Positions 2,853-50,515 of a DNA stretch of 64,000 nt are shown here, in pieces. Made by a program: the position numbers and the translations under genes. The notes under the pieces were generated by a model that saw only the letters and a program-made list of their open reading frames with translations, did no database searches and was not told the origin of the DNA. Positions within the stretch are counted from its first letter, which is position 1, and each line of letters begins with the position of its first letter. The stretch is from an uncultured Chthonomonadaceae bacterium (lineage in GTDB: Bacteria > Armatimonadota > Chthonomonadetes > Chthonomonadales > Chthonomonadaceae), in assembly GCA_963817895.1 (NCBI GenBank), contig CAWFQB010000004.1:448001-512000 (forward strand), given 5' to 3'.

Positions 2853-2862
2853 ATCTGCCCAT

Positions 2863-3777: not shown

Positions 3778-3887
3778 CTTAAAAGCGTTAACCGGTACAT
3801 CTCTGTACAGTTATTTTTACAATTCAGGAACGCGGAACATTGCGTTTGTACCGGCTTACGAAATGCCGGTTTGCCGCAGGATAGGCT

Positions 3888-5805: not shown

Positions 5806-6850
5806 TTGTCCCCCCCATCGGCGGCGTCGCAGTACCTGCGGACGGCGGCCTTGCGCCACTCTGGTTATCGTGTTCCGGCACTTCCGGCGCGTGGCGAATC
5901 GTCCCCGAACCTGTTCTGCCGGACGGCATAGTATTTGTCGGCGCTCCGGGCGCGTTGCCTGTTGCGGGAGTTCCCGGCGCGTTTCCACTTTGGGGCGTAC
6001 CCGGCCCGTTTGTGGTTGCCTGCGGTGGTGTGCCGGGGGCGGGCTGCCGATTGCCGTTTTCGGGCGTGTTCGGAACCGGGGTATCCGCAAGCGGCGCGTG
6101 GTCTGTTACCGAACCCGTGCCATTTGCGCCCGGCGTATTATTGTTTCCCGGCTGCGGAACAAAATTGTCAATCTGCGCTTTGGCGGCGGGCGATATTTTG
6201 GTATCGTCTACATCGCCGCGACCCGCGTTCTGGCTGCGCTGAAGGGCGCGAATGTAGGCCACAATCCGCCATCGGTCATCCGGCTCAACACGCGACGCAT
6301 AAGAGTACATCGTGCCGTAGCCGTTGGTAATCACGTCGTAGAAGTGACCGACGGGCGCGTTACGCAGGCGCTCCTCGTGGTAGTTACCCGGCGGGCGGCG
6401 CAGGGCAAAGCCGCGCTGCGCGATCATCCCCTGCCCGTTGCCCAATGCGCCGTGACAGGGCGAACAGTAGATGCTGAATCGCTCCTGTCCCCGCGCCATA
6501 TCCTGTGAGGTAATTTTGAACGGGAACGTGGTCGCCACCTGAAGATGGTTGTCAAAGCCGGTATAACGCGCCGAATCCGTCCAGTATTGGCCCCGCGCGA
6601 CGGTATTGTTGATCGGCTTGCGCTGCGCCTGCTGATCCGGGAAAAAGTCGCTCGGATACTGCGGCTTCACTTTGGGTTGTATCCACATATCGGTGTGGCA
6701 GCCGGACAACCCGACGAGCAGCAATAGGCCGGAGTACCTCACCCCAACCCCTCTCCTTGCCGCTCCTGCGTCGCCAGGAGAGGGGCTATTTGAGGTGGCG
6801 GCTGTGCCAGTGGTTATATTATTGCGTTGTATGCGGAAGGGAACTCGCAT
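5786..6850 (-). CDS. actE: Alternative complex III monoheme cytochrome c lipoprotein ActE (start uncertain)
   Basis: Lipobox LSGC, DMWIQPK, CSPCHG heme motif, GYGTMYSYA...DRWRIVAYIRALQ. Confidence 0.9.
   Translation of the reverse strand: MRVPFRIQRNNITTGTAATSNSPSPGDAGAARRGVGVRYSGLLLLVGLSGCHTDMWIQPKVKPQYPSDFFPDQQAQRKPINNTVARGQYWTDSARYTGFDNHLQVATTFPFKITSQDMARGQERFSIYCSPCHGALGNGQGMIAQRGFALRRPPGNYHEERLRNAPVGHFYDVITNGYGTMYSYASRVEPDDRWRIVAYIRALQRSQNAGRGDVDDTKISPAAKAQIDNFVPQPGNNNTPGANGTGSVTDHAPLADTPVPNTPENGNRQPAPGTPPQATTNGPGTPQSGNAPGTPATGNAPGAPTNTMPSGRTGSGTIRHAPEVPEHDNQSGARPPSAGTATPPMGGTNGTGNR
6737..6785. repeat. REP-like palindrome inside the actE 5' region
   Basis: CCTCACCCCAACCCCTCTCCT...AGGAGAGGGG; arms cccctctcct (6748-6757) and aggagagggg (6776-6785). 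Confidence 0.65.
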
Positions 6851-6867
6851 GTTCACTTTCCTAAACC

Positions 6868-7422
6868 TCAATTCTCGACTTCTGACACCTGTAGCGGGTT
6901 CAGGCCAAGCAGGAAATCTTCGGTTTCTTCGCGGTCGAATTTCGGGTCTTTCGACTCGATGCACAGGAAAAAGCGCGTTTGCGACGCCAGTTCAAAGCGC
7001 GGCGCGTTGAAAATGGGATGGTGCGGGCGCGGCAGGCCGTTGAAAGCGAGCATCGCACCGGCAGCCGTCAGCGCAGCCAGCAAAATGGTACATTCAAATG
7101 TGACCGGAATAAACTGCGGCCAACTGAACGCGGGTTTGCCGCCCACATTCCAGGGATAGTCGCAAACGCTGGTATACCATTGCAGCCCCATGCCGCCCGC
7201 CGCCCCGGACAACCCGGCCAGAAACACAGCCCACGGAATACGCCAGTCGTTTAGGTCGAGCGCGTCTTCCTCATACAGACCCGCGACCGGAAACGGCGTA
7301 TACGCATCCATGACCCGGTAGCCCGCCGCTTTCGCCGCTTTGACCGCCGTGATCAGATCTTCGGGCGTATCAAACTCCGCCGTCATGCCGTATAAGCGGG
7401 GTAATGTCGTCTCGTGTAACAC
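6868..7422 (-). CDS. actD: Alternative complex III subunit ActD (DUF3341)
   Basis: AEFDTPEDL..A, MDAYTPFPV, NVGGKP.FSWP.FIPVTFE motifs. Confidence 0.92.
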   Translation of the reverse strand: MLHETTLPRLYGMTAEFDTPEDLITAVKAAKAAGYRVMDAYTPFPVAGLYEEDALDLNDWRIPWAVFLAGLSGAAGGMGLQWYTSVCDYPWNVGGKPAFSWPQFIPVTFECTILLAALTAAGAMLAFNGLPRPHHPIFNAPRFELASQTRFFLCIESKDPKFDREETEDFLLGLNPLQVSEVEN

Positions 7423-7433
7423 GTTCGTTCCTC

Positions 7434-7555
7434 AGGCATCAGGCATCAGGCATTAGGCATTAGGAAAATCCTGCTGTTATCCAATATGCGCAATTTTAAG
7501 TATCATAGCATCAGTCAAGTTCTTCCTAATGCCTAATGCCTGATGCCTGATGCCT
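7434..7555. repeat. Inverted heptamer-array hairpin (AGGCATY units), actC/actD spacer
   Basis: Perfect 33-bp inverted arms at 7434-7466 and 7523-7555 around a 56-nt AT-rich spacer. Confidence 0.92.
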
Positions 7556-9053
7556 CTATTCGTGCTTAAGTCCCGCAGGACTGGTAATCGCGTTGGCTTG
7601 TTCGCCGCCCGGACTGACATGGCCGTGATGACCGTCCGTGCCGTGTTCGCCACCATGCGTGTGGTTTTCGTGGTGCAGCAGTTCGCGCATTTCAAAGATC
7701 GAAATCATCGGCAGGAACCGGATGAACAGGAACATCAGGAAAATGAACTGCCCGATGGTTCCCAAAAACATCGTATAGTCGAACGGGCGCGGCACATAGT
7801 AGTTCCAGCTTGACGGCAAATAGTCGCGGTGCAGGCTGACCGGAATAATCACGAACCGCTCGAACCACATCCCGATACTGACCGACTGGCACACAAGGAA
7901 CAGCACTTTCAGGTTGGTACGGAACTTCTTAAACCACATCAGTTGCGGAATCAGGATGTTTGTGCAAATCAGCACCCAGTACGACCAGCCATACGCGGGG
8001 CTGAAAATGCGGAACCGCAGCATGTCCATCTCGTACTTGTCGCCGCCGTACCAGCCGAAGAATACTTCCATCAGGTAGCCGTAAGCGACAATCAGGCCCG
8101 TCGTGAGCATGATTTTCGCCATCCAGTCAAGATGCTTCATCGTAATGAAGTCTTCCAGATGGTACCATCTTACGAAGGGGAATGGCGAACGTGATAACCA
8201 TCGCGAACCCGGCGAAAACCGCGCCCGCGACAAAGTACGGCGGGAAAATCGTCGTATGCCAGCCCGGGACGATTCCAACGGAGAAGTCGAAACTCACGAT
8301 GGAGTGGACCGAAAGCACCAGCGGCGTCGAAAGTCCGGCAAGTATCAGGTACGCGCTCTCATACCGCTGCCAGTGCGAGGCGGAACCGCGCCATCCCAAC
8401 GCGCCCGCGCCGAACAGCACTTTGGCGTACACGTTCGTCGCCCTGTCGCGCAGACTGGCAAGGTCGGGTATCAGGCCGATAAACCAGAACACCGCTGATA
8501 CCGTCGCATACGTGGAAACCGCGAACACGTCCCAGATAAGCGGGCTGCGGAACTGCGGCCACATCGCCAGAATGCTCGGATACGGGAACATCCAGTACGC
8601 GCACCAGGGTCGCCCCGTATGCAGCAGTGGGAACAGACCGGCGCACGAAACCGCGAACAGCGTCATGGCTTCCGCAAAGCGGTTGATACTGGTGCGCCAC
8701 TGCTGTCTGAGCAGCAGCAGAATGGCCGAAATCAGGGTTCCCGCGTGGCCGATACCGATCCACCACACGAAGTTGATGATGTCGAAGCCCCACGCGGACG
8801 GCTCATTGATGCCCCAGATACCAACACCCATCCACAGCAGATAGACGATGGTGTACATCAGCAGGTTGAGCAGCAGAAATCCGATGCCCACCATGACGTA
8901 CCAGGGCATCGGGTGTCCGGCCTGATTCAGCACGATCCGCCCGATACGATCCGTGATCGTTTCGTAGGTGTTTCTGCCGCCAATCAGGCGGTTTCCGGTC
9001 GGTTCTGTATTTTCTCCCGGCGCAGGGGTCGGGGTCGGGTAAACGTCAGCCAA
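7556..9053 (-). CDS. actC: Alternative complex III quinol-binding subunit ActC (NrfD family), one frameshift near 8165
   Basis: [38 protein letters not shown] and [10 protein letters not shown] are split across ORFs 8127..9053 and 7556..8278. Confidence 0.92.
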
Positions 9054-9073
9054 CGGGTTACTCCGTGAGGAGA

Positions 9074-9199
<126 letters not shown>

Positions 9200-9201
<2 letters not shown>

Positions 9202-12200
9202 ATCCTCCTAGCTCTGGATTCGGATTATGCACGCGCCCTAGATAGGACGTGCGGGGGCGCGTGTTCAGGTCGGCAAGCACGCCGTAGTTGTGCGGCTCGG
9301 CTTTCAGTTTCGAGACTTCGCTGTTCGGGTCGTTGATGTTGCCGAACACGATGGCGTTGGTCGGGCACGTCTGCTGGCAGGCGGTTTTTATTTCGCCGTC
9401 CGCCAGGTCGCGCTCCTGCATTTTGGCGGTCTGCCGCGCGATATTGATGCGCTGGACGCAGAACGAGCATTTTTCCATCACGCCGCGCCCGCGCACGGTT
9501 ACTTCCGGGTTGTTGCGCATCTTCACTACAGGAATCTCGAAGAAGTTGGCGTAGTTCAGGAAGTTGAAGCGGCGCACTTTGTACGGGCAGTTGTTGGAAC
9601 AGTATTTGGTTCCGATGCACCGATTGTAAATCATCTGATTCAGGCCCTCGTGGCTGTGAATCGTGGCGGCAACCGGGCAGACGGGTTCGCACGGAGCCTG
9701 TTCGCAATGCTGGCACATCATGGGCTGGAAGTACGTGCCCGGATTGTTGACGTAATCCTCGTGATGCTCCGGGTTCGCTTCGTAATACGTGTCAATGCGA
9801 ATCCAGTTCATGTGCCGCCCGATGAGAACCTGCTGCTTGCCGACAATCGGAATATTGTTTTCGGCCTGACACGCCACCATACAGGCGTTACAGCCGATAC
9901 ACGCGGTTTGGTCTACCACCATGCCCCAGGCGTACGCGCCATACTGCGTGTCACCGGGCTGCGGCCATTTCCACTCTGCCGAGGGGTACATGTTGGGCTG
10001 ATCTTCAGCGCTTTGCCGCCGTTTTCGTTTTTGATGGCGAGGTTTTCTTCGCGGTTGGGCGTTTCGGTGTTTGTCCGCGCCCTTTTCGCCAACCTGTCCC
10101 TCACCCTCTTCGGGCGCGAGGCTTGGGCGGCGCTTGAATTCCGCGATGCTGCCCACGCGCACAATGTCGCGCCCGTACATCGTCTGATGGTGCGTGGTCA
10201 CGGCAAGCGGGTAGGTATCGGATAGCTTCTGCACGTCGGCGGCGAAGTGCCAGGGCGCGGACGTGGTAAACAGATTATAAGCGTTGTAGCCGATGTCGTT
10301 GCCGATACTGCCTGCCCGCGTCCGTCCATACCCTAAAAACAGGTTGATGGTATCGTCAGGTACTCCCGGCTGAATGATGACCGGCACTTTTTCCGTTCGG
10401 GACGTACCGTTGGCATCTTTGAACGATACCTCAATAATGTCGGACGGGTGCGCGTAATCGGTATCTAACTGAATATGCAGTTTGTTGGCCGTGTTGATGT
10501 TGATGTACGCGGCGTTGTCCCACGTCACTTTCACGAACGGCTTGGGCAGTTCTTGCAGCCAGCCGTTGTTGCTGTGCCGTCCGTCCCATATATGCGGGTC
10601 GGGGCGCATGGTGATTTCAAAGCCATTGCCGGACGCGGGCGCAGCAGGCAGGGCGGCAATCGCGCCCGCCGCAACCGTAACGGTTCGCGGCGCGGCAGCC
10701 GTGTTCAGGATCACGCCGTCGTGCAGCAGTTTGTTGAAATCGAAGGTTCCGGTCGTGTTCTGGCTTGCCCAATGCTCCTGCACAAGCGCGTAACCGTCGC
10801 GCGGTTCGCCAATCAGCCCGGAAAGAACTTCATGCGCGGACTTGTTGCCGTAAAGTGGTTCGATGAGCGGCTGAATGATGGACGCGGTTCCGTCATAAGC
10901 GCGAATGTCGCTCCACGCTTCCAGAAAATGGGTTTCCGGCAGATGCCACTGGCACAACTCGGAAGTCTCGTCCTCGTACAATCCTAAATGCGCGCGGAAA
11001 GCGGGCTTGCGTATTTGTTCGCGCAGTCCCAAATCTTTCGGCGCGTTGTAAACCGGGTTGCCGCCCAGAATCAGCAGCACATCCACTTTGCCTGCGCGCA
11101 GGTCGCTCGTCAACTGCACAAGGTCCGCGAACTGGTTGGTCGGCGCGGCTTCTACCGGGTCGGTATGGGTTACGGATACGCCCGCGCTGCCCAATGCTTC
11201 GTTAATGGCATGGGCGAGAACGTGTACAGCGGGAGATTGGAAATCGCCGGGAATAACCACGCTGGAACCATGCGGCGCGGATTGCAGGTCTTTCACCGCC
11301 GCTGCGACAAACTTTTGCGTACCCGCGTCCAACGCGCCTGCCGTCATGCCCGCCACGCCCAAGCCTGCGGCAATCGCGCGGGCAATGGGTTCAATCTGGC
11401 TCGGCTTCATGGGCAATTTATGGTCTGCCATTGCCCCGGTAATGCTCGGCGAACACTCCACAACGTACAGGCGGCTCATGTCCCCTTCCGAAGTGGCGCT
11501 GCGAACGCGCCGCCCGTTGATGAAGTCGCGGGCATAGCGGACGCTTCCGGGCATGGACATCAAAAAGTCGGCGTCCAGCGACAGAATACGCTTGGCTTTA
11601 TCCAGATTGTAAATCGTGTTGACGGGAGTTCCGAACGCCAGCCGCGCGCCCTCTCGAACGTTGTCGCGCCCCGCCGGTTCGTACTGTACCCAACGGGCAT
11701 TAGGATACTGCGCCAGCAGGTTTGTCATCTGCGCGGCAAGGGTGGGGGATGTAATAGTTTCCGTCAGAATACGGATACCCGCGCCGCCCGAAGCCCGCTG
11801 CAAAGCGAACGCGCCCCGCGCTTTGTCAAAGAACTCTTTCCACGAACTCACTTCATCCTGACTGGTGACAACCTGCGAACGGTCAGGGTCGTACAGCGGC
11901 AGAATGGAAGCCTGTCCAAGCGCGTCCAATCGTCCCAGACTTGCCGGATGGTCGGGATTGCCCTCCATCTTGATCGGGCGGCCTTCCCGTGACGTGACAA
12001 GCGAACCCACGCCGTACCCGCCGATGCTCGGAATGGCGGTGGCATACACCATTGGGATGCCTTCGATGACCTCTTCGGGCTTGCGCACGTAGGGGACGAG
12101 TTTCTTCTGTTCCTTGTAGCGGCAGCCGCTCAAACCCGCGAGGGCCAGCGACGCCCCGGCAAGCGTCAGGAACTGGCGGCGATCCATGTGCATACCCGCC

Positions 12201-12353
12201 ATGCGCGTGGTTTGCGGAATCTCGTCGGCCAGAAACTCCTGCGTGTCCTGCGTTGCCCAGCAGTTCGCCCAACGTGCGCCAGTACTGCTTGCCCCGCGCG
12301 CCCGATAGCCGCGCCCGGATAGCGTCCATATTTAAGGGGTTGTTGTTGTTCAT
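9200..12353 (-). CDS. actB: Alternative complex III subunit ActB (TAT-variant molybdopterin oxidoreductase-like domain plus Fe-S domain), frameshift near 12260
   Basis: GKQYWRTLGEL N-terminus in a different frame; RRQFL...LSGC Tat-lipoprotein signal; EGRPIKMEGNPDHP; CIGCNAC, CQHCEQAPCEPVCP, CIGTKYCSNNCPY and EKCSFC ferredoxin motifs. Confidence 0.93.
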
Positions 12354-12366
12354 GGTTGGCTCAGGA

Positions 12367-12504
12367 GTAGATAGGTAGATGGGTAGATGGGTAGATGGGT
12401 AGATGACATGACTGGACTCTACCTTTCTGCCGCTATTCGCCTGCATCCACATAACGCAAGCGCATTTTCTACCTATCTACCTGCCTACCTATCTACCTAT
12501 CTAC
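12367..12504. repeat. Inverted octamer-array hairpin (GTAGATRG units), actA/actB spacer
   Basis: Arms at ~12367-12404 and ~12468-12504, imperfectly complementary. Confidence 0.85.
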
Positions 12505-12505
12505 C

Positions 12506-13276
12506 TTACCGGTGGCATATCCAACAGTCGGCAAGTTGCTGCTTCTTGACGCGGTATTTCGGGATCAGTTGCTGCGCGGTTTCGGTTTCGGCGTCGTTGT
12601 TCATGTACGATCCGCCTTCGGCGAGCGCGTACTGGCGCGGCGTCAAACCCTCCCGTTTGGGGTCGTTCTCGTCCTTGCCGCTGGAATCAACCGCGTAGCC
12701 GAAGCGCTGAATGTCCTGATACAGTTTGAAGACGTTTTCGCGGGGCTGAATGAACTTCTCCGGCTGGCGGTGGCAGTTTAAGCACCACACCATAAAGAAG
12801 GTTTTGCCCTTGTACACCATCATCATCTTCTGAATGGGGCCGTGACAGTAGTTGCACGAAACGCCCCGGTTGATGTGAATGTTGTGCGGGAAGTAGACAA
12901 AATCGGGAACGGCGTTCACGTTGTTCCAAAGCAGGGGCTTGCCCTCGGCGTAGCTTTTGCGCGCGGGATCGAGCAGGGGGCTGTCGGTCCAGATTTGCGA
13001 GTGGCATGACATGCACACTTCCGTTGCGGGCAGGGGAGAGTACGAAGACTTCTCCACGCCGCCGTGACAATAGCGGCAGTCAATGCCCAGTTCGACGGCA
13101 TGATGCTCGTGGCTGAAGGGAATCGGCTGCGGCAGGGGAACGCCCACTTTGGTATTCAGGGGCAACCTCGACACGCCGGTCGCGATCAGCAGCGTCGCGC
13201 CGGGGCCGAGGACGCCGAAAACCAGCAGGCTTAATCGCGCAAGCACATTGGTTGCGGGGTGAAAAATTTGAGCCAT
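12506..13276 (-). CDS. actA: Alternative complex III pentaheme cytochrome c ActA
   Basis: MAQIFHP start, one TM, QPIPFSHEHH, five CxxCH motifs (CRYCH, CMSCH, CNYCH, CLNCH, CWICH). Confidence 0.93.
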   Translation of the reverse strand: MAQIFHPATNVLARLSLLVFGVLGPGATLLIATGVSRLPLNTKVGVPLPQPIPFSHEHHAVELGIDCRYCHGGVEKSSYSPLPATEVCMSCHSQIWTDSPLLDPARKSYAEGKPLLWNNVNAVPDFVYFPHNIHINRGVSCNYCHGPIQKMMMVYKGKTFFMVWCLNCHRQPEKFIQPRENVFKLYQDIQRFGYAVDSSGKDENDPKREGLTPRQYALAEGGSYMNNDAETETAQQLIPKYRVKKQQLADCWICHR

Positions 13277-13562
13277 CAATACGCTCCGGGCTGCCATGCG
13301 CGGTCAACACGGCGTCACGCGACGCTTGTTACCGGCACGGGGAATTCAGTTCTGAATGAACACGCGCAACAGGCGCTTCAACGAATTGGACGGCACACGT
13401 CTAACTTACTTAATCGGGGCAGGTTTGGCAGCAATTACGCGCTGTACGCGGGATGGTTCCCCGTCTTAGCCTGCCAATTCCGGGCTAACCTTTTATCATC
13501 ATTGGTATTTTTACGAGCGGCTTGCAGATTCCTGCCGCATTTCAGGGACTTTCAGCAAAAGT

Positions 13563-13580
13563 TTGTGTTTTTTTTCACGA
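13563..13580. promoter_or_regulatory. Candidate Rex-like operator upstream of actA
   Basis: TTGTGTTTTTTTTCACGA versus Rex consensus TTGTGAA-N4-TTCACAA (18 bp, 3 mismatches). Confidence 0.4.
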
Positions 13581-13814
13581 TGCCTGCGCTACCAGTCTGC
13601 TCTTGAGCCTTGTTCGCGAGTTGAAGCCCGCGAAAAGTATTTCTGCTGTCATCAACAAGATTGGGAATTGCGCGATTGTGGAGCGGGTCAGGCAGGTTCA
13701 GTATGTAAACTGTGTCCGCAGTATACCCTCTCCCTCTTGTCTTTGTCTAGGGCTATGCCGCTCAAAGAATGTTCGTAGGGACACAACATGTTGTGTCCTC
13801 TGCTGTACGCCACG

Positions 13815-14834
13815 TCAAGGTGTCAGTACATTATGATCAATCGCCATCACGAGAAATAGCGCGGCCAGATAGATCATCGAATAGTGAAACAGGTGCGACG
13901 CCTGCGGGCGTTCCGGCTTGTGATACAGTTTTATCGTATAGGATACTAGAAACACGTTCAGAAGTCCCGCGCCCGCAAGGTACAGATAACTCGCCTGATG
14001 CTGCGCGAACGGCAGCAGGGTCACGGCAATGGTCATCGCCGTGTAGTAACTGATTTGTCGAACCGTGACGCGCTCGCCGCGCACGGACGGCAGCATCGGA
14101 ATGCCCGCTTTGGTGTAATCCTCTTTGAGCAGGATCGCCAGCGCCCAGAAGTGTACGGGCGTCCAGACAAAGATGATGGCGAACAGCGTCCATGCCAGCG
14201 GGTGCATCGCGTGCGTTACCGCTGTCCACCCGACAAGCGGCGGGAACGAGCCTGCCGCGCCGCCCCACACGATGTTTTGCCACGTCCGGCGTTTCAAAAT
14301 CAGCGTGTACACCACCACATAAAAGGCCAGTCCCGCAAACGCGAACAGGGCGGATTGCAGGCAGCCGAAATGCCACAACAGGCCAAAGGATAAAACCGCA
14401 AGCGTCAGCGCGAACAGCAGGGCATTGCGCGACGTGATAAACTGCGTGACGGTCGGGCGTTTGGCGGTTCGCGCCATGCGCCCGTCAATATCGCGGTCAA
14501 TCACCATGTTGATCGCGTTTGCCGCGCCTGCCATCATGTAACCGCCGATAGCAACCGCCATAAACAGCGCGAAACCGACCGGATGCCGCGCGTCATTGGC
14601 GATATACATGGCTGCAAGCGTGGTGAACAGCAGCAGGCTGATAATGCGCGGCTTGGTCAGCGCGATATAGGCGTTGATGGTTCCACGCAGGGACGGCGGC
14701 GCGAGAACATGCGGAACCGTCACTTCCGGCGTCATGCAGGGCGTGGTTTCACTTGCGACAACGGCTTCGCGCAGTGGCGAACCGGCAGTGGCAAGCGTGT
14801 CTTTGGTCAGGGTGTCAACGGTCGAAATCTTCAC
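13815..14834 (-). CDS. ctaB: Protoheme IX farnesyltransferase (heme O synthase)
   Basis: LTKPRII, NMVIDRDID.RMART..RP, LKRRTWQNIVWGGAAG and WTPVHFWALA motifs. Confidence 0.95.
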   Translation of the reverse strand: MKISTVDTLTKDTLATAGSPLREAVVASETTPCMTPEVTVPHVLAPPSLRGTINAYIALTKPRIISLLLFTTLAAMYIANDARHPVGFALFMAVAIGGYMMAGAANAINMVIDRDIDGRMARTAKRPTVTQFITSRNALLFALTLAVLSFGLLWHFGCLQSALFAFAGLAFYVVVYTLILKRRTWQNIVWGGAAGSFPPLVGWTAVTHAMHPLAWTLFAIIFVWTPVHFWALAILLKEDYTKAGIPMLPSVRGERVTVRQISYYTAMTIAVTLLPFAQHQASYLYLAGAGLLNVFLVSYTIKLYHKPERPQASHLFHYSMIYLAALFLVMAIDHNVLTP

Positions 14835-15780
14835 TCGGGTAAAACCTTTGCGCCAGCGTGGAGGCGCTTAACAGAACCATGACAATCCACAGTAAATCTG
14901 CGAGCAGGAGATGCAGCAACTGCATTCCAATGGGCGTGAGCGTGACAACGTTGAGAAATCCCACCGCGATGTTGATGCCAAATAGTATTACGACATATCG
15001 GGCAAATCGCTGCGTATCTACCGTCGGGCGAAGGCGGACAGCGGCGCGGGCAACGAACAGGGAATAGATGCCGACCGCAATGGCAATGGGCGGATGCAGC
15101 AATCTCAGGCGAATAATCAGATGCGCGCCGGGGTTCAAGTCCTGCTGTAACGCGGCATAGAGATTATTGGCGGGGTACAGCGTGTCGCTCAGGGCGGTAA
15201 TCGCGCCCGTCACCGCCAGAAACAGCGTTGCAATCAGGCCGATGCCAAGCGCGAGGCCGAGCGTTCCCGAATGGCGAAAGGAGAAGCGGGGCCGGCCGCC
15301 GCTCCACCAGGCGGTGAGCGCGAGACACATCAGCAGCACAAAGGTATTGACAAGGTGCAGTGACATCATCACGACGCGGGCGGCGGATTCGTTCCCGGCC
15401 ACCAGTCCGAACAGCACCAGAATTGCGCCGAACGCGGCTTCCGTGAGCGTGAACAGCAGGGACAGGTTGACGCCGAGCCGAACGGGATGGAAACGGGGAA
15501 ACACGCGGTACGCCCACACAACCAACAGTCCGATGAGCGGCAAAATCAGTCCGGTTGAAACGCGATGGGAAAACTCGACAAGGGTGGCAAGCCGCTGAAA
15601 CGCGGGAATCAGATGCCCGCCACAGAACGGCCAGTGCTTGCCGCAGCCGTCGCCCGATCCCGAAGCGCGAACGACAGCGCCCCACACGACGACAAACAGC
15701 ATGTACACCAACACGCCCCACGCATACTGCGGAAACCGAATTCTGGCAAGTGTCTTGACACGCAACAGGTATGCCCCCAC
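14815..15780 (-). CDS. ctaA: Heme A synthase (COX15/CtaA family)
   Basis: GAVVRASGSGDGCGKHWPFC, VEFSHR and conserved His-bearing TM helices. Confidence 0.9.
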   Translation of the reverse strand: MGAYLLRVKTLARIRFPQYAWGVLVYMLFVVVWGAVVRASGSGDGCGKHWPFCGGHLIPAFQRLATLVEFSHRVSTGLILPLIGLLVVWAYRVFPRFHPVRLGVNLSLLFTLTEAAFGAILVLFGLVAGNESAARVVMMSLHLVNTFVLLMCLALTAWWSGGRPRFSFRHSGTLGLALGIGLIATLFLAVTGAITALSDTLYPANNLYAALQQDLNPGAHLIIRLRLLHPPIAIAVGIYSLFVARAAVRLRPTVDTQRFARYVVILFGINIAVGFLNVVTLTPIGMQLLHLLLADLLWIVMVLLSASTLAQRFYPSEDFDR

Positions 15781-41734: not shown

Positions 41735-42667
41735 ATGCGCTGCCTTGCCGGGTTCCTGCTGCTGATACTGCTGTTGCTTTTTGCCGGGTGCGGGGGCAAC
41801 TTAGGCGCTCCGACCGGGCTTGTCGCCGCAACGGTGACGTTTACCGCAACCGTTCCGCCAATGCCCTCCCCGCAACCCAAATCGGTGCAACTGGCGATTG
41901 CGAAAGCGAACCTGAACGGCTCCGATTTCACGGTCACGCAGAATATCAATCCCACCAACGGCGGCATGTTTCCCGTTCCCGCGGACGGACACCCGCTTGG
42001 CCCCCTGCGTCCCATCACGACCACGCTGAGTTCACGCTTTTATTCCGGGCCGGATGCCAGCGGCGACGTGATTTCCAGCGCGAATGTACCCATTACGCTT
42101 CATTCCGGCCCCAACCAGTTCGGTTTCGCTTCCAATGCCGCTGTCGCGTCCATTGCCCTCGTTCCCGATCAATCGCTTGTTCTGGGACAGTCTCGCGCCC
42201 TCGATGCTATTTTGCGGGACAAGGACGGCAACTACGTGGCGGTTCCCGGCAGCCAGATCAGTTTTACGGTTACGCAGGGACAGGATGTGGTTCAGGCCGT
42301 CAACAACAACACGCAGCTGAAGGGCCTGAAACTCGGAACCGCGACCGTAACAATCACCGCGCAGGGTCTGACCAGCGCGCCGGGTACGGTTCAGGTGGTG
42401 GCGGGCGTGTTCATCAATCCGACAAGCGCGTCTGTCGCGCCCGGAGCGCAGCAGACGTTTACGGCCAGCCAGCCCGTCGTGTGGAGCATTCAGGAGGGCG
42501 CGGCGGGCGGAACCATCGTCACCAACACCGACGGCTCGGCAACGTATACCGCCCCGGTCGGCGCGGGAACCTTCCACGTCGTTGCCACCAGTCAGGCCAA
42601 CTCCACGCAATCGGCGACGGCAGCGGTCACGGTGCAGTCCGGCACGGGCGGCTTCATTATTCAATAG
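41735..42667 (+). CDS. Lipoprotein with Ig-like domains (surface locus gene 1)
   Basis: MRCLAGFLLLILLLLFAGC lipobox; Big_2-like domain; one WSIQEG..GG...YTAP...G.FHVVATSQA repeat; tail GTGGFIIQ. Confidence 0.85.
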   Translation: MRCLAGFLLLILLLLFAGCGGNLGAPTGLVAATVTFTATVPPMPSPQPKSVQLAIAKANLNGSDFTVTQNINPTNGGMFPVPADGHPLGPLRPITTTLSSRFYSGPDASGDVISSANVPITLHSGPNQFGFASNAAVASIALVPDQSLVLGQSRALDAILRDKDGNYVAVPGSQISFTVTQGQDVVQAVNNNTQLKGLKLGTATVTITAQGLTSAPGTVQVVAGVFINPTSASVAPGAQQTFTASQPVVWSIQEGAAGGTIVTNTDGSATYTAPVGAGTFHVVATSQANSTQSATAAVTVQSGTGGFIIQ

Positions 42668-42750
42668 CCGCCTGTACAGAATTTTTGAACCGCAAAGAAG
42701 CAAAGACAGCAAAGAAATAGCAAGGGAAGAAAAGCAAGGAAACAACGGTT

Positions 42751-44883
42751 ATGAAGCGCTTGATTGCCTGTATTCTTGTGGTTGGAATGGCGCTCCTGTT
42801 GAGTGGATGCGGCGGCGGGGGATCGGGGTCGAACGGCTCCTCATCCTCTACCACAGGCCGACAAACAGGACAGGCCACCTTTACCATCGCCTGGCCCACA
42901 TCCGGCAAACAGGCGGCCATCCAACCCGCCCCCGGTAAACCCGCGTCCCGCGTTTCGCGGGTGATACCGGATTCCGTCGCCAGCATCCGCATTACGATTA
43001 CAAACGGGGGTGTGATTGTCGGCGATAAACTGTTTCCGCGCCCATCACAGGGCGGGCAAACGAGCGCGGCTATCAGCGGCCTGCCTGCCGGTGTTCCGCT
43101 CACGGCAACGGTGTACGCTTTCCCCAACGCGGCGGGAACCGGCGTTCCGGTCGCGCAGGCGTCCATTCCCATTGCCATTGTCGCCAACCAGAACACGCAG
43201 GCTCCCACGATTACGCTCGACAGCGCGATTAACCATGTGGATGTGACGCCGGGTACGCTGCTTGCCGCCGGCCAAAGTGTTACGGTTTCTGCGGGCCAGA
43301 CCCTATCCCTTACAGTCGGGCAAACTCTTCCCCTTGTCGCCACCCCCCGCGACAGCTCCAACAACGTCGTGCTGATCGCGCCCGGCAATCTGACGTGGGC
43401 TTCCAACAATGCCGCCGTTGCGATTGACCCGGCTTCGGGCGTCATCACGGCGAAACAGCCCGGCGCGGCCAACATCGTGGCAACCGTGAAAGTGGCGAAC
43501 GGCGATCCCGGCATCGCGTCCCCCGCCTTTCCGGTTGTCGTCCATGTCAACATCGCCTTTAATCCCACTGCGGTTGTTATGACCATCGGGCAAAGCGTGA
43601 CCTTTTCCGCCACGCTCACGCCTGCGGGCAGTGGCGGCGTCACGTACAGCGTTCAGGAGGGGAGTTCGGGCGGCAGCGTCAACCCGTCTACGGGAGCCTA
43701 TACCGCCCCCGGCACAGCCGGAACGTACCACCTCGTAGCCACCAGTCAGGCCGATCCAAGCCAGAGCGCGACAGCAACTATCGTGGTGCAGGAAGCGGCT
43801 CACGCGGTTGTCACTGCCAGCCTGCAATTCGCCACCATCACGCCGCAAAGTTCTCTCACTCTTGCCGCGTCCGTGCAGGGCAAGACCAATACGGGCGTCG
43901 CGTGGAGCATACAGGAGGGCGCGGCGGGCGGAACCCTGACAGCCGATGCCAGCGGAACCGAAACCTACACCGCCTCGAACAACCCCGGCATTTATCACAT
44001 CGTCGCCACCAGTCAGGCCGATCCGTCGCAGGCAGCCGTATCCACGATTGTCGTTCAATTCGCGCCTGCCGCCATCTACTCCACCCTGAGCGCGGCCACT
44101 CTTGCCCCGCAAACAAATGTGACGCTGCGGGCCATTGTCGCCAACCAGACAAGTACGGGCGTGACGTATACCATTCAGGAGGGCAGCGCAGGCGGCATCC
44201 TGACCGCGAACCAGGACGGAACCGAAACCTATACCGCGCCGGGTACAGCAGGCACGTACCACATTGTCGCCACCAGTCAGGCCAATCCTTCGCTTGTGGC
44301 GGTTTCCACAATCACGGTTCTGGGCCAGGCGGGAGCCGCCATCCATCCGAACCTGACGGCTGCGATTGTGTTCCCGCAAAGCGCCCTGACGCTGCGAACT
44401 ATCGTGACCGGCTACGCGAATACGGGCGTGACCTATACCATTCAGGAGGGCGCGAGTGGCGGAACTCTGGTTGCGAACCCGGATGGAACTGAAACCTACA
44501 CGTCGCCGAACACGGCGGGAACCTATCACATCATGGCGGTCAGTCAGGCCGATAATACGCTTGTTGCTGTGATCCCGATCTCTGTAACGGGAAGCCAGTC
44601 AGCAGTGATTATCATTCCGCCCACAGTGACGCTTACCTTGCAGCAAACCACGTCGTTCTGCGCGGCTGTCGCCAATATGATCAACAATACGGTTACGTGG
44701 AGTATTCAGGAGGGCGCGAGTGGGGGCGCGTTGTCAGGGCAGGCGGGCAACACAACCAACTATACGGCTCCCACCACGCCGGGAACCTATCACCTGATTG
44801 CCACCAGCCAGGCGAACGGGGCATTGCAGGCAACCGCAACAATCACAGTGAAAGCGGGCGCGCTCAACGTCACGGTAAATTAG
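42751..44883 (+). CDS. Large lipoprotein with Big_2-like domain and five tandem Ig-like repeats (gene 2)
   Basis: LLSGC lipobox; five (S/T)(I/V)QEG..GG...YT(A/S)...G.YH..A.SQA repeats; tail GALNVTVN. Confidence 0.88.
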   Translation: MKRLIACILVVGMALLLSGCGGGGSGSNGSSSSTTGRQTGQATFTIAWPTSGKQAAIQPAPGKPASRVSRVIPDSVASIRITITNGGVIVGDKLFPRPSQGGQTSAAISGLPAGVPLTATVYAFPNAAGTGVPVAQASIPIAIVANQNTQAPTITLDSAINHVDVTPGTLLAAGQSVTVSAGQTLSLTVGQTLPLVATPRDSSNNVVLIAPGNLTWASNNAAVAIDPASGVITAKQPGAANIVATVKVANGDPGIASPAFPVVVHVNIAFNPTAVVMTIGQSVTFSATLTPAGSGGVTYSVQEGSSGGSVNPSTGAYTAPGTAGTYHLVATSQADPSQSATATIVVQEAAHAVVTASLQFATITPQSSLTLAASVQGKTNTGVAWSIQEGAAGGTLTADASGTETYTASNNPGIYHIVATSQADPSQAAVSTIVVQFAPAAIYSTLSAATLAPQTNVTLRAIVANQTSTGVTYTIQEGSAGGILTANQDGTETYTAPGTAGTYHIVATSQANPSLVAVSTITVLGQAGAAIHPNLTAAIVFPQSALTLRTIVTGYANTGVTYTIQEGASGGTLVANPDGTETYTSPNTAGTYHIMAVSQADNTLVAVIPISVTGSQSAVIIIPPTVTLTLQQTTSFCAAVANMINNTVTWSIQEGASGGALSGQAGNTTNYTAPTTPGTYHLIATSQANGALQATATITVKAGALNVTVN

Positions 44884-44896
44884 GAGCAACACGTTT

Positions 44897-46561
44897 ATGC
44901 GCGGTTTAACACAATCTATCTCCATGGCTCTGCTTCTGCCGCTTGCCGTATTTCTGTGCGGATGCGGCGGCGGAGCGGGCAAAAACGCGCTTGCCGGGGC
45001 GGGGCGCAAGGGCGGCAAGGGCAAGCTGACCGTAACCTTCAAATGGCCCACGCCCGCAAAGGCGGCAAAACGCCATCGCTTTATTCCGCTCGCGTCCATG
45101 AGCGTAGTTGTCAGCGTAAACGGGCCGACCGGCTACACGGCCACCTCCCCGCCCCTGACGCCAACCGGCAGCGGGGTGGGCGCGACAAGCACGTATACTT
45201 TCAATACCGTTCCCACCGGCACGATTGCGGTGACATCCAAAGCGTTTCCCAACCCGGATGGAACCGGAACCGCGCAGGCCGGCGCGACCAATCCCAACGT
45301 CACCATTCAGGCCGATCAGACTGCTAATCTGAATCTGACAATGGACACCACCATTGATAACGGTCACACGACGATTACCGGGTTAGGCCAACTAACGCGG
45401 ACGCGCGCTTCCAATTACACCGTCATCTTTCAGGATGGCGGCGGCAACACGGTACTGGTGGCTCCCAATACCGTCACATGGGGTACGGATGACCCTACCA
45501 TCGCCCTGGTGACAGTGGTTTCCCCGGATGGATTGACAGCAGCCGTATCGGGCATTTCGGCGCGTGAAACCAACATTCACGCCATCTATCAGGAACCCGG
45601 CGAGGCGGCGCAGTTTCCCAACAACCCGAACCGCTCCGGCAATTTCGACCTGAAAGTTTTGCCCATCATCTATATCTGCGACAATGGCAACAACAACATC
45701 GTGGAAATAGATAACATCAACGGGGATAATCGCGCCACACTGCCCCCCTCCGGCGCAGGCTATGCGTTTTCGCAGCCGCAGGGTGTTGCTGTTGATTCCG
45801 TTGGTGGGGTGTACGTGGCGGATACGGGCAACAATCGCCTGGTTCGGATCAACAGGGCGGACGGTTCGGATTTAGTGTCCGTGTCAACCCTCAACGGCAG
45901 GAACCTCAATACGCCGACCGCCGTTGCCATTGATAACAGCGACAACATCTATATACTGGACGACGGCAATTCCCGCGTAGTACAGTGTACCTACACCCCG
46001 AACAACTCGATCAATTTCGTACAGGAGTGGCCCATCAGTTCCGGGCTATTTCACAATGCCCTGACCTCTACGGACCCCGGAACGTTCACGTATACTGAAG
46101 TCCTTACGAGCCGCGCCAATGGCCCCTCACCCGCTATCGTTCAATTCGACGGCTCGGCTTCCAGCGTTTTCCACGGGCAGGGCGTGGTTGCGCTGAAATT
46201 TCCCTGGGGCGTTGTCAACAACTCCGGCAGCCTGATTGTGGCCGACCGGGACGGCAACCAACTGCTTCAACTGGACGGGCAAGGCAGCAGCAACGGCATT
46301 ATCAACTTCGATACCATCACCGTCGCTTCCCGCCTCAACTCGTTCAATAATATCGCGCTGAACGCGCCTCGCGGACTCGCGGCGGACGGCTACAGCAACC
46401 TGTATATCGCGGACACGGGAAACCAACGCATCATCCAGAACTCCAATTTTATCCGCCTGGGGCTGTTTTCTTCCTCTCCCACGTATACCCCGTCCGGCGG
46501 TTCTGCGCTGAACGCTCCCTACGCCGTAGCCGTAGACCCGCCGGAACCGCCACGATTTTAA
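44897..46561 (+). CDS. Lipoprotein with Ig-like domain and C-terminal NHL beta-propeller (gene 3)
   Basis: LCGC lipobox; PQGVAVDS.G.VYVADTGNNR and PRGLAADG..NLYIADTGNQR NHL repeats. Confidence 0.88.
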   Translation: MRGLTQSISMALLLPLAVFLCGCGGGAGKNALAGAGRKGGKGKLTVTFKWPTPAKAAKRHRFIPLASMSVVVSVNGPTGYTATSPPLTPTGSGVGATSTYTFNTVPTGTIAVTSKAFPNPDGTGTAQAGATNPNVTIQADQTANLNLTMDTTIDNGHTTITGLGQLTRTRASNYTVIFQDGGGNTVLVAPNTVTWGTDDPTIALVTVVSPDGLTAAVSGISARETNIHAIYQEPGEAAQFPNNPNRSGNFDLKVLPIIYICDNGNNNIVEIDNINGDNRATLPPSGAGYAFSQPQGVAVDSVGGVYVADTGNNRLVRINRADGSDLVSVSTLNGRNLNTPTAVAIDNSDNIYILDDGNSRVVQCTYTPNNSINFVQEWPISSGLFHNALTSTDPGTFTYTEVLTSRANGPSPAIVQFDGSASSVFHGQGVVALKFPWGVVNNSGSLIVADRDGNQLLQLDGQGSSNGIINFDTITVASRLNSFNNIALNAPRGLAADGYSNLYIADTGNQRIIQNSNFIRLGLFSSSPTYTPSGGSALNAPYAVAVDPPEPPRF

Positions 46562-46676: not shown

Positions 46677-47342
46677 TTGCAGCGCAAACAGGGTTTACAC
46701 ATATTGGCGATGCTGATGCTTTGCCTGGGGCTTGCTCCCGCCGCGCGCGCGCAATTTGCCGGCGGCAGCGCGCTTGTCCGATTTGACGCGACGCGCAAAG
46801 AGCAAACAAGAGTATATGGCGCATTCGACGTTTATCCGTTTGCGCCGTTTACCACTGGTGGCAATTTTGCGAATGGTTCTTCCGGCACACAGACGAATTT
46901 CGGCGCGCTCATTGCGACCAACATCGGAATCAAACCGGCGAAATCGCGCAATGCCGTGGAAGTTGGGGGCTGGTTTTGGACGCGGGGCGGTTCCAGTCTG
47001 AGCCAATACCATATACGGGGATTTTTCACGCCCGAATTCGGCGTTCAATTCAGCTATTTGCAATCCTCGCGCGCTCCCGGCGCGGCATACACGGCGTTTT
47101 TTGTTTATGACCTGCTTTCCACCCGCGTCAATCCGCAGTCCACGCGCCACTGGTCTATTGAAGGCGGTCTGGGCGGCTTCTTCGATCTTGCGGCGGGACG
47201 CAGCACGTCTTCCGTCACCATGTACGTGCAGGGCAGCTACCAATTGGTCGGCAATCTCAGCGCCAATGCCGGTATCTGGTATCTGCGCGACCGCTCCGAC
47301 GACCTGAACCGCTTTACCGTTGGCTTAGGGTACAATTTCTGA
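46677..47342 (+). CDS. Putative small outer-membrane beta-barrel protein (gene 4)
   Basis: Signal peptide ending ARA, alternating amphipathic strands, C-terminal beta-signal FTVGLGYNF. Confidence 0.7.
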   Translation: MQRKQGLHILAMLMLCLGLAPAARAQFAGGSALVRFDATRKEQTRVYGAFDVYPFAPFTTGGNFANGSSGTQTNFGALIATNIGIKPAKSRNAVEVGGWFWTRGGSSLSQYHIRGFFTPEFGVQFSYLQSSRAPGAAYTAFFVYDLLSTRVNPQSTRHWSIEGGLGGFFDLAAGRSTSSVTMYVQGSYQLVGNLSANAGIWYLRDRSDDLNRFTVGLGYNF

Positions 47343-47349
47343 AATTCTT

Positions 47350-47512
47350 GTTAGCCGCGAATGAACGCGAATAAACGCAAATGAGAGACAAAAATATTCA
47401 ACGCTGTTTGCTGCCCTATGTTTTTTTTGCAGCCCGCTATATTTATACGTGGATGCTGACTGTTTGTAACACTCGGCCCATTCGCGTGTATTCGCGTGTA
47501 TTCGCGGCTAAC
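47350..47512. repeat. Inverted decamer-array hairpin (CGCGAATRMA units) overlapping the caspase 5' end
   Basis: 34-bp arms at 47350-47383 and 47479-47512 with 4 mismatches; the left-arm sequence recurs at ~21661-21690. Confidence 0.85.
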
Positions 47513-50500
47513 CTTGCATTTTTCCTCTGCTTCACTCTGGCAAACGCGGCGTGGAGTGACGAGGCTCCGATTCTGCGCGTCAATCCGGGCGGGCATACCG
47601 CGCAGGTGCGGGCGGTGCAGTTCACGCCGGATGGACAGCAGTTGATTTCCGCCGGGTTCGACAAAGTGGCGCGGGTCTGGAATTTGCGGACGGGGCGGCA
47701 AAGCGCGATACGGTTTCAGATCGGGCCGGATTTGGACGGGGCCGTAAAATCCGCGGTGATTTCCCCCGACTCGGCTTCGCATCTGCTCGCGCTGGGCCTG
47801 ACGAGTTCGCACGGCAACATTCTGCTGCTGGATTACACAACGGGCAAACTGGTCGGCAAACTGAGCGGCCACGCGGCCCGCATCCAGACCGCGCATGGCG
47901 ATATTCTGAATACCATCACGGGCCTTGCGTTCTCGGGTGACGGCAAAACGCTGGCATCGTGCGACACGGACGGAACTGTTCGATTGTGGGACGTTGCCGG
48001 ACAGAAATCGCTGCACGAGTGGTCATTAAAGGATCGGCAATCCCGCCCGTATCTTGCCGGGATCGCCCTTTCGCCGGACGGTTCGCAGCTTGCGGTCGCC
48101 AGCAATCATGAAACAACCCGCAACGCTTTCAGCGGGGATGTGCTTGTGTGGGACACGCATACTTTCAAGCAGACGCAAAAATGGCAGTGGCGCGATTTAA
48201 TCAACTGTATTGCCTGGTCGTCGCAGAACGCGCTCGCGTTCGGCAGCCGGGACGGAACCATTCAAATCTGGAACGCCCGAACCGCTTCCAAACCCGAACG
48301 CCTGCCCCGCCAGAAAGATACGGTTGTGTGCCTCGCGTTCAGCCCGGACGGGCGCGAACTGCTCAGTGGCGGTGGCGAAGGCGGGCAGGATTTGTCGGCA
48401 AGCGTATGGACCGGTCCCGATTTCCACCTTACCCGTACCTATCTCACTCATGCCGCGCCGATTTTCGCCTGCGCCCTTGCCCCGGACGGAGCGCAGGCTG
48501 CAACCGGCGATCTGTTCGGAACCATTCACGTCTGGAAAACCGATACCGGTGATGAAGTTCGCGCTTTGCAGGGAACCGGCAAGCCTGTGTTCGCCGTCGC
48601 CTGGTCGCCGGACAACGCGCAGGTCGCCTGGAACACGACGTTCAAAAGCGCGAAACTGGAAGCCGGGTTCGATCTGTCCCGCGCCGTACCCGCCGATGCG
48701 TTCGACCCGACGCTGCCCTGGAAGGGTGGGGAAACGCAGGGCGCGGGCGGTCAAATCAACATCGCTTTCGACAACGCCAGCCTGACAATGGGGGAGAAAC
48801 CCGGCGGCAAGGGCGGCAACCCGAAGCGTATTTCCGCGCAAACCGGCGATCTGTTCCGTTGCGCCACATATGCCCCGGAAGGCGGCGTAATTGTCGGCTC
48901 GGATCAGTATCTCGCGCTGTACGCCAAACCGGACGGCCCGCCCACGCGCCTGTTTGAGGGACACGAAGGCCCCGTCACTGCGGTTGCCGTTTCACCCAAC
49001 GGCAAATTTCTGGCCTCCGCTTCGATGGATCAGACCGTTCGCGTCTGGAGTCTCGACCCCAAAGACGAGGTTGTCGTTCTTGGGCGGCGCGTTGTCCGTC
49101 CCCTGCTGTCCATTTTTCAGGCCAACGACGATGATTGGGTGGCATGGACGCCGCAGGGGTATTACAACGCTTCGGCAACGGGCGACCGCTTGATCGGCTG
49201 GCACGTCAATCACGGCCTGGACAAACTGCCCGACTACTATTCCGCCGACCGGTTCGCGCCCCTGCTGTACCGCCCGGACATCATCTTTTACCAGTTCAAA
49301 ACTGGCAGCCTTGTCGAAGCCTTGCAGGAAGCGGACAAGGCGCGGGGCAAGCAGACCGTTGCCTACGACATCAATCAGGATTTAACCCGCCTCGCCCCGC
49401 GTCCCGTCGCGATTCAGTTTCCCGCCGAAGGCAGCGCTGTAGACAGCCCGGAACTGATAATAGGCGTGAAGTACGAGGGCAACGCGCAGAAAAGCGTCAG
49501 CGTGGGCGCGGTCGTGCTGGAAGCGCCAAGCGCGCGCAGCGTTGTCGAAGTGGATGCGGGCGCGGCGGCTAACGGGCAGAAACTCACAGTTCCCCTTGTG
49601 CCGGGACGCAACACGATTCGCGTTTATGCCGTCAATGCGCAGGGGGTGCGCGGCCTGGCTTCGGAACTACACGTCACCTACAACGCGCCCGCCGGTGAAG
49701 AATCCGGCCCGCATTTCGACACGCTGCATCTGCTGACAGTGGGCATCGGCAAATTCCCGAAACTGGATGAAAAGTGGCAGTTAGGGTACACCACGCAGGA
49801 CGCCAAAGCCGTAGACGCCCTGTACCGCGCCCAACAGGACAAACTGTTCAGCCATGTAGACGCGAAATCCCTGCTGGATTCAGAAGCGACGGGCGACAAC
49901 ATCATGCGATCCATCGAAGACCTGAGCAAACAGGTCGGCAAAAAGAAGCGCGATTTCGTTGTCTTGTTCGTCTCCTCGCACGGTTTTCCCGGCGGCCCGG
50001 ACAAAACCTCGCTGTTCTTCGCGCCCTCCAACCTTGACGCTTCCAGTCAGGCGAAGATGGAGGAAACGGGCGTGGCGTGGAACAAGATCATCGAACAGTT
50101 AAAGCAGCTCCCCTGCCCCGTTCTGCTGCTGATTGACACCTGCCATTCCGGGGGCGTAGGCATTGAACTGTTCCGCTCGTTCGACCCGGTAAAAGGGCGC
50201 GGATTCGACCCGCGCCGCGAAGCCATCCGAGAAGCGACGGAAAGCGGCCTGTACGTCCTGTCCGCCTGCCGCCCCACCGAGCAGAGCCTGGAAACCGAAG
50301 CGTGGATGCACGGCGCGTTCACCAAAGCGTTTCTGGAAATGGGGCAGGCGCAAAATAAAGCCCGCGTAGACCCGGACGGCGTGATTATCTTCCGCAACGC
50401 CTTCGACTACGTGTTCAACCGCGTCCGCGAACTCGTCGCCCCCGGCAAGCAAAGCCCCAAACTCTACGAACCGCTCGACTCCGCCGGCGACCTACCCTTG

Positions 50501-50515
50501 CTGAAAGTGCGCTGA
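47381..50515 (+). CDS. Exported WD40-repeat protein with C-terminal peptidase C14 (caspase-like) domain (gene 5; start uncertain)
   Basis: Signal-like LAFFLCFTLANAAWS; many GH...WD/W blades; catalytic FVSSHG and IDTCHSG; LSAC...Q.S.E....HGAFT. Confidence 0.92.
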   Translation: MRDKNIQRCLLPYVFFAARYIYTWMLTVCNTRPIRVYSRVFAANLAFFLCFTLANAAWSDEAPILRVNPGGHTAQVRAVQFTPDGQQLISAGFDKVARVWNLRTGRQSAIRFQIGPDLDGAVKSAVISPDSASHLLALGLTSSHGNILLLDYTTGKLVGKLSGHAARIQTAHGDILNTITGLAFSGDGKTLASCDTDGTVRLWDVAGQKSLHEWSLKDRQSRPYLAGIALSPDGSQLAVASNHETTRNAFSGDVLVWDTHTFKQTQKWQWRDLINCIAWSSQNALAFGSRDGTIQIWNARTASKPERLPRQKDTVVCLAFSPDGRELLSGGGEGGQDLSASVWTGPDFHLTRTYLTHAAPIFACALAPDGAQAATGDLFGTIHVWKTDTGDEVRALQGTGKPVFAVAWSPDNAQVAWNTTFKSAKLEAGFDLSRAVPADAFDPTLPWKGGETQGAGGQINIAFDNASLTMGEKPGGKGGNPKRISAQTGDLFRCATYAPEGGVIVGSDQYLALYAKPDGPPTRLFEGHEGPVTAVAVSPNGKFLASASMDQTVRVWSLDPKDEVVVLGRRVVRPLLSIFQANDDDWVAWTPQGYYNASATGDRLIGWHVNHGLDKLPDYYSADRFAPLLYRPDIIFYQFKTGSLVEALQEADKARGKQTVAYDINQDLTRLAPRPVAIQFPAEGSAVDSPELIIGVKYEGNAQKSVSVGAVVLEAPSARSVVEVDAGAAANGQKLTVPLVPGRNTIRVYAVNAQGVRGLASELHVTYNAPAGEESGPHFDTLHLLTVGIGKFPKLDEKWQLGYTTQDAKAVDALYRAQQDKLFSHVDAKSLLDSEATGDNIMRSIEDLSKQVGKKKRDFVVLFVSSHGFPGGPDKTSLFFAPSNLDASSQAKMEETGVAWNKIIEQLKQLPCPVLLLIDTCHSGGVGIELFRSFDPVKGRGFDPRREAIREATESGLYVLSACRPTEQSLETEAWMHGAFTKAFLEMGQAQNKARVDPDGVIIFRNAFDYVFNRVRELVAPGKQSPKLYEPLDSAGDLPLLKVR

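Follow-up and report, generated by a model that had tools for sequence, protein, structure and literature searches.

In the window, by which we mean the whole stretch of 64,000 nucleotides that was analyzed, we found three adjacent and co-oriented genes on the plus strand, all with intact ORFs and a lipobox cysteine. Gene 1 (41735..42667, 310 aa) encodes a predicted anchor lipoprotein with a Cys19 lipobox, a Big-like Ig domain, one terminal-type Ig repeat and a short C-terminal tail. Gene 2 (42751..44883, 710 aa) encodes a predicted stalk or spacer lipoprotein with Cys20, an acceptor N-terminal domain (N-domain), a Big_2 domain, five terminal-type Ig repeats and again a tail, and gene 3 (44897..46561, 554 aa) a predicted tip lipoprotein with Cys23, an acceptor N-domain, an Ig domain and an NHL beta-propeller. 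Pfam searches assigned Ig-like domains to genes 1 and 2 and NHL repeats to gene 3; the N-domain is unnamed. In genes 2 and 3 it follows the same order: lipobox, Gly/Ser linker, a placeholder strand (strand A) ending in W-P, a loop and an R-x-I-P motif. Strand A with W-P reads GQATFTIAWP in gene 2 (42868..42897, plus strand) and GKLTVTFKWP in gene 3 (45020..45049, plus strand), and the R-x-I-P motifs are R70-V-I-P (42958..42969) and R61-F-I-P (45077..45088), respectively, both on the plus strand. The N-domain of gene 1 is divergent, and no Arg stands between the first and second strands predicted in it. Gene 1 has a tail and no Arg loop, and gene 3 has the Arg loop and no tail. A promoter and terminator scan gave signal at or below chance.

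Translation placed tail 1, GTGGFIIQ, at 42641..42664 with its stop codon reaching 42667, and tail 2, GALNVTVN, at 44857..44880 with its stop codon reaching 44883 (both on the plus strand). They are the predicted donor strands for genes 2 and 3, respectively, and both tails and both strands A lie exactly where the first-pass annotation had read them when it proposed that the tail of each lipoprotein mimics the N-terminal strand of the next gene's product. Position 2 is a small residue in tail 1 and Ala in strand A of gene 2, and Leu in both tail 2 and strand A of gene 3. The same-genus ortholog of gene 1 ends in GTGGFIVQ. Chance similarity had been allowed for; the 8-mers of the window alone prove nothing, but the family-wide tail pattern given below excludes chance.

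Of 301 genomes of the phylum, 112 had a match to the N-domain profile, and the domain was present in 44/68 and 42/71 genomes of two classes. The family comprised 1565 protein clusters at 50% identity, and its named relatives were Armatimonadota, from which the window therefore most likely derives; one member is annotated in Armatimonas rosea. The second domain was Big_2-like in 73 of 136 members (Big domains were matched at Z 9-11), and the C-terminal heads varied by Pfam accession, including NHL, FG-GAP, PQQ-like, TolB-like, lactonase-like, RCC1, LamG and others. A search of the ESM Atlas returned unnamed clusters only (best 0.90), and Big_2 proteins dominated the hits when proteins were searched with the two-domain alignment. 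The family appeared to be undescribed in the literature searched, in which coverage of subscription journals was thin; in its passage on fimbriae, the Fimbriimonas genome paper ascribes these to type IV-type genes and leaves the family unmentioned (PMC4072686).

The relationship between the tail and the presence of a downstream family gene was analyzed in two sets. The first comprised 80 regions plus five of the source genome (146 domain-bearing ORFs, 138 with a parsable Cys and strand A), and the second 60 regions from genomes obtained later, with 88 ORFs of which 83 could be parsed and 73 entered the counts; the counts exclude loci L005-L034 and L115-L135, and region L161 of the second set is a same-genus ortholog of the window operon and hence not independent. 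When C-termini of the first set were scored with a profile built from A strands only, genes with a downstream family gene were separated from those without at an AUC of 0.79, and 20/48 versus 10/88 exceeded the background cut. A tail rule, composed after seeing the first data set, was passed by 33 of 49 genes with a downstream member versus 11 of 86 without (p=1e-10; 135 parsable ORFs with a stop and downstream room) and by 60 of 2479 background ORFs. In the second set the counts were 11/18 versus 6/55 (p=6e-5), both p-values being inflated by kinship. Thus, most family members with another family gene downstream carry at their C-terminus an 8-residue tail similar to the first strand of the family, and the mimicry first noticed in the window extends across relatives far beyond chance. 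About a dozen upstream tails had Gly at position 4 (loci L041, L048, L038, L044, L067, L073, L140, L147 and L151); these did not mimic strand A and were dropped by the rule from the pair tests.

Structure models placed the tail outside its own domain. In the model of the last 96 residues of gene 2 (50-row alignment, pLDDT 94), the Ig strands were complete at residue 87 and residues 88-96 formed a coil, with a pLDDT of 62 in the last block versus 93-98 elsewhere. The four internal Ig copies of gene 2 lead straight on to the following repeat and lack the tail. The first-pass annotation had named a tail that is the integral last strand of its own Ig domain as the outcome that would speak against its proposal; neither the model nor the internal repeats showed such a strand. 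The first two domains of gene 3 (136 rows, pLDDT 88) were modelled with a seven-stranded sandwich in which strand A (residues 3-11) is followed by a lower-confidence loop (12-30) containing the Arg. The nearest solved folds of the N-domain were middling, near the level that the tool calls common (VIA Z 8.9 for 1nkg; 8.2 for 4q1z, Bacteroides BT_1938, rmsd 3.1 over 86 residues; 8.1 for 3liu, a Parabacteroides cell-adhesion protein, rmsd 4.2 over 95 residues). Foldseek with the two-domain model gave matches to antibodies and filamin only, all of them poor (TM 0.2-0.35).

We then consider the complex predicted for gene 3, cut of everything up to the Arg, with the last Ig domain and tail of gene 2. 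It scored 0.76 (runs 0.76, 0.77 and 0.76) versus 0.36 for the best of three controls, with at least 99% of contacts in common between runs and a partner pLDDT of 90-91; the mark used for such scores was attained by 116/157 solved and 2/215 mismatched pairs and is roughly applicable here. Tail residues 87-96 lay between gene 3 strands 57-70 and 99-111, and residues 90-95 ran antiparallel to the former and parallel to the latter. The tail of gene 2 is thus predicted to occupy the strand A slot of gene 3. The slot was emptied for modelling, could be filled by any beta-prone tail, and was folded with one cognate pair, so that the prediction is neutral as to partner; it may also owe something to a resemblance to solved folds with strand complementation. 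The predicted complex supports assembly by tails as the first-pass annotation had it, as far as the gene 2 tail and the gene 3 slot are concerned, and does not go as far as a strict code or a heterotrimer of fixed composition. It is very improbable that the tail instead directs sorting or export, or is a relict strand, and that it looks like strand A only through the generic G-x-h-x-h-x-h pattern of beta-strands: the motif is short and generic and occurs in some genes without a downstream member (the 11/86 and 6/55 above), but a signal would be expected on tip proteins too and would not covary with the strand and core of a neighbour (see below), and the complex model places the tail in the slot.

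A further conserved feature of the family, absent from the first-pass annotation, was the Arg of the loop after strand A. Arg23 (model numbering) was found in at least 90% of 136 alignment rows. Arg or Lys preceded x-[ILV]-P in 75 of 81 acceptors, and the other six had a basic residue nearby (judged by eye), whereas Arg stood there in only 17 of 29 chain-heading N-domains. A further 37 donors had no usable N-domain match, 27 of them being, by eye, plain lipoproteins of other domains. In type V pilins, the first strand carries the lipid and the loop behind it contains an Arg at which the protein is cut, whereupon a donor strand takes the place of the first strand (PMC13655056; bioRxiv 10.1101/2024.11.15.621889). 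By analogy, the near-invariant Arg is likely the trigger of assembly, with putative cleavage after it; in the window a cut would fall after Arg70 of gene 2, judging from conservation in the family, and after Arg61 of gene 3.

Neither of two protease candidates, the caspase-like C14 gene and clostripain (C11), tracked the family. Homologues of the caspase-like gene adjoined 6/145 regions, and the third copy of this WD40-caspase gene in the source genome has no chain genes, which argues against it as the dedicated protease. Clostripain was found in 67/68 and 30/32 genomes of two groups and in 0/39 genomes of one family, in which 11/39 carried the N-domain and members kept the Arg; it was rejected on this ground (Arg or Lys in 7/9 members of the clostripain-free family versus 181/191 parsed elsewhere, p=0.09). 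A search for C25 (gingipain-type) proteases in the 81%-complete source genome gave no match, the control being silent too. C11 proteases are near-universal in the class; of two in the source genome (G000:C4:523594-525705 and G000:C1:75669-76765), one is secreted-looking and lies ~12 kb beyond the window, and the other is a split lipoprotein. The lack of a dedicated protease among these candidates would fit a displacement without proteolysis, in which the tail ousts strand A, all subunits stay lipid-tethered in a membrane-hugging complex or mesh, and the conserved Arg may be structural. Many chain heads also retain the Arg. Nevertheless, Arg or Lys is kept in acceptors and more often lost in heads, and the loop that holds the Arg differs greatly in length and is modelled with low confidence, the Arg taking the position that the Rgp site has in type V pilins. 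We therefore regard displacement without a cut as quite unlikely.

Taken together, it is fairly probable, from sequence comparison and models, that the three genes encode a short surface appendage built by donor-strand exchange in a manner similar to type V pili, with gene 1 as anchor, gene 2 as spacer and gene 3 as tip; this order is favored, and other products are possible. The subunits would be exported as lipoproteins, as suggested by the lipoboxes seen in the sequence, and presumably reach the outer surface. In the modelled N-terminal sandwich of stalk and tip, strand A would be a lipid-tied placeholder followed by the Arg loop. A cut after the Arg would free the position of strand A, the 8-residue tail of another subunit is predicted to take its place, and this swap would both release the acceptor from the membrane and hang it on the donor. 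Gene 1, tailed and without the Arg loop, would stay behind as anchor, gene 2 would serve as a six-Ig spacer, and gene 3 would present its NHL propeller at the tip, possibly for adhesion. The fit of the tail's first inward residue to the slot may bias the tail towards the subunit encoded next, a statistical and loose effect.

The evidence for such a bias came from comparing each tail with the strand A of the next gene. In the source genome, eight pairs summed to a cognate BLOSUM score of 77, where permutation gave 55 on average (p=0.067), and the cognate strand ranked from 1 to 8 of 10. Tail 1 scored 11 against the strand of gene 2 and -2 against that of gene 3, and tail 2 scored 17 against the strand of gene 3 and 9 against that of its own protein. 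In the first set, 54 pairs summed to 647 versus 464±29 when shuffled, with the signal at positions 0 and 2; the big/small class of position 2 agreed in 45/54 pairs, and matched the next gene in 29/33 cases versus the protein's own strand in 21/33. The position-2 class test was fixed before the new genomes were obtained, and in the second set it failed (17/27, p=0.26). Overall similarity was replicated there (27 pairs, 291 versus 241±17, p=0.003), and the tail went with the next gene in 4/5 discordant cases; in this set alone, the signal was lost when pairs were shuffled within genomes (p=0.24; 15 pairs could be moved). After de-duplication of the pooled pairs at 55% identity (67 of 81 kept), cognate similarity was 773 versus 611 when shuffled within the family (p=0.0002), 674 within the genome (p=0.0002) and 737 within the locus (p=0.005, 19 movable pairs). 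Position 2 agreed in 52/67 pooled pairs; where the own and the next strand differed at this position, the tail matched the next gene in 10/12 cases (p=0.039), and overall the next strand beat the own strand 23 to 10 (n=34). The covariation that the first-pass annotation had put forward as a check, between tails and the acceptor strand of the downstream gene, was thus found in the first set, the second set and the pool.

The core of the acceptor pointed in the same direction. The volume of tail position 2 anticorrelated with acceptor columns 111, 82, 121 and 79 (rho -0.53, -0.38, -0.38 and -0.27, respectively), of which only the first clearly survives correction for the 111 columns tested. The same columns anticorrelated with position 2 of strand A itself. 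They correspond to V135, V105, L145 and F102 of gene 3, all within the predicted interface; in the complex model, the Leu of the tail is touched by F102 and L145. A tree-based independent-pairs test on a quick tree yielded 2-3 supported pairs only and was uninformative.

Since tails were closer to the strand of the next gene than to others, even within genomes (p=0.0002), a loose preference of tails for gene order is probable from these alignments. An uncoded exchange would account for the likeness by drift of co-inherited neighbors: any tail would fit any slot, giving homopolymers of gene 2 type or chains with any tip. It would be in line with the spread of cognate ranks in the source genome, with the failed position-2 test, with operons that run counter to a simple order, having several tips after one tail (L050, L056, L058) or a tail-less gene first (L036, L069), and with the fact that 140 of 221 family genes had no upstream neighbor with a tail passing the rule (81/221 had one). 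We consider it unlikely, as the signal survives shuffling within genomes and within loci, the tails follow the next gene and not their own protein, and DNA duplication as a source of the likeness was unsupported (codon-level likeness 42% versus 39±4%). The preference itself is loose, a median of 19% of non-cognate strands scoring above the cognate one. Of the assembly-order code colinear with the genes that the first-pass annotation had envisaged, the bias of tails towards the next strand remains, and a strict form conflicts with the failed position-2 test and the counter-order operons. Likewise, its defined heterotrimer fits the anchor, stalk and tip features of genes 1-3 and agrees less well with the multi-tip operons and the many genes without a tailed upstream neighbor. 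A stronger reading, that stalks of programmed fixed length occur phylum-wide, is conceivable, though we lean against it; here operon order would spell a heteromeric chain, the first residues of the tail would form a knob-in-hole code that selects the next subunit and prevents self-polymerisation, reach would be tuned through added Ig repeats or added genes (up to six per chain), and propeller tips would be interchangeable.

Chains in which a tailed gene is followed by the next member (n=66) contained two genes in 57 cases, three in five, four in three and six in one. In the source genome the N-domain occurred at four other loci as well, and in three of them upstream members had a similar tail and the last member had a propeller without a tail. 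Among the side cases, L001:1022-11863 (G000:C1:315022-325863, minus strand) is a five-subunit chain of four tailed genes and an NHL tip, in which an unusual aromatic residue at position 1 is common to the third tail and the strand of the fourth gene. The pair on contig C2 (L003:5912-7791; G000:C2:527912-529791) has neither tail nor conserved Arg and is possibly a non-exchanging offshoot. In L050, L056, L058, L170 and L179, a single tailed gene precedes two or three genes that have no tail and differ in their heads, suggestive of interchangeable tips. Several family genes were split by frameshifts (L001:9422-10835, L002:6678-8424, L004:6978-8877, L161:11252-12418), likely due to sequencing error because many other genes of the same genomes were also split.

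Comparison with type V pili, a system that the first-pass annotation had not brought up, revealed both likenesses and differences. These pili, with FimA/Mfa1 stalk, FimB/Mfa2 anchor and Mfa3-5 adaptor and tip pilins, are described as unique to Bacteroidia, and the ordering of their subunits is stated to be unclear (PMC13655056, the latter in the legend of its Fig. 5); their anchor has no cut site and their tips have no donor strand (PMC13655056; bioRxiv 10.1101/2024.11.15.621889). Both systems share lipoprotein precursors, anchor, stalk and tip genes in one operon, a first strand followed by an Arg loop, and a C-terminal donor strand that replaces strand A, here by prediction. The anchor without a cut site and the tip without a donor are also shared, in our case as a family-wide trend with exceptions, and the N-domain sandwich aligns to 3liu and 4q1z, at Z-scores near the common level. 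We take 3liu and DUF4493 to be pilin-type; DUF4493 gave a weak match in 5/136 members (best E 4e-5) and nothing in the source genome, and HMM searches of the family against solved pilins gave no match. In contrast with type V pili, the family has no transthyretin-like pilin C-domain of the kind that bears the donor strands and self-complements them, carrying instead Ig arrays, Big_2 among them, that vary in number and end in one short free tail. Its chains mostly comprise two or three different genes (57/66 have two), whereas type V pili have one polymerising stalk, and its host is Armatimonadota and not the class Bacteroidia. P. gingivalis uses a gingipain, whereas our search for this type in the 81%-complete genome, with its silent control, had no match. 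Because it departs from type V pili in two defining features, namely the pilin C-domain and the host class, we did not class the family as a type V pilus. It is a real feature whose assembly logic, as read from sequences and models, would be type V-like with Ig spacers in place of the pilin C-domain.

Order in chaperone-usher pili (P and type 1) is biased by the fit of donor-strand residues to the cognate pocket, non-cognate exchange being slower (PMC3960871). The family appears to resemble them in choosing partners through the fit of a donor strand to a neighbor's pocket. However, the donor there is an N-terminal extension and here a C-terminal tail, and those subunits are not lipoproteins and need a chaperone and an usher; genes 4 and 5 of the window matched no chaperone or usher family. 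If our reading is true, protease-triggered strand exchange would extend well beyond Bacteroidia, to a distant and barely studied phylum with Ig spacers and many tip types. With dozens of natural tail/slot pairs and free tails of 8 residues, partner choice would be open to direct tests with peptides, and the pairs could yield orthogonal plug-and-socket protein connectors.

Downstream of the three genes lie gene 4 (46677..47342, plus strand), whose product is secreted and has, by eye, the look of a small outer-membrane beta-barrel, with no Pfam match, and gene 5 (47381..50515, plus strand), which encodes WD40 repeats and a caspase-like Peptidase_C14 domain and has an uncertain start codon. The link of gene 4 to the chain is doubtful, its type adjoining 5/145 regions, and a role of gene 5 as maturation protease is possible but poorly supported. 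The barrel-like and WD40-caspase genes (window:46677-50515) form a module with three copies in the source genome, one of them without chain genes; the other copies follow two chain operons, those of the window and of the five-gene chain of L001. Finally, the operon at 1671-15780 of the window presumably encodes alternative complex III with cytochrome oxidase genes, by the look of the N-terminal sequences.
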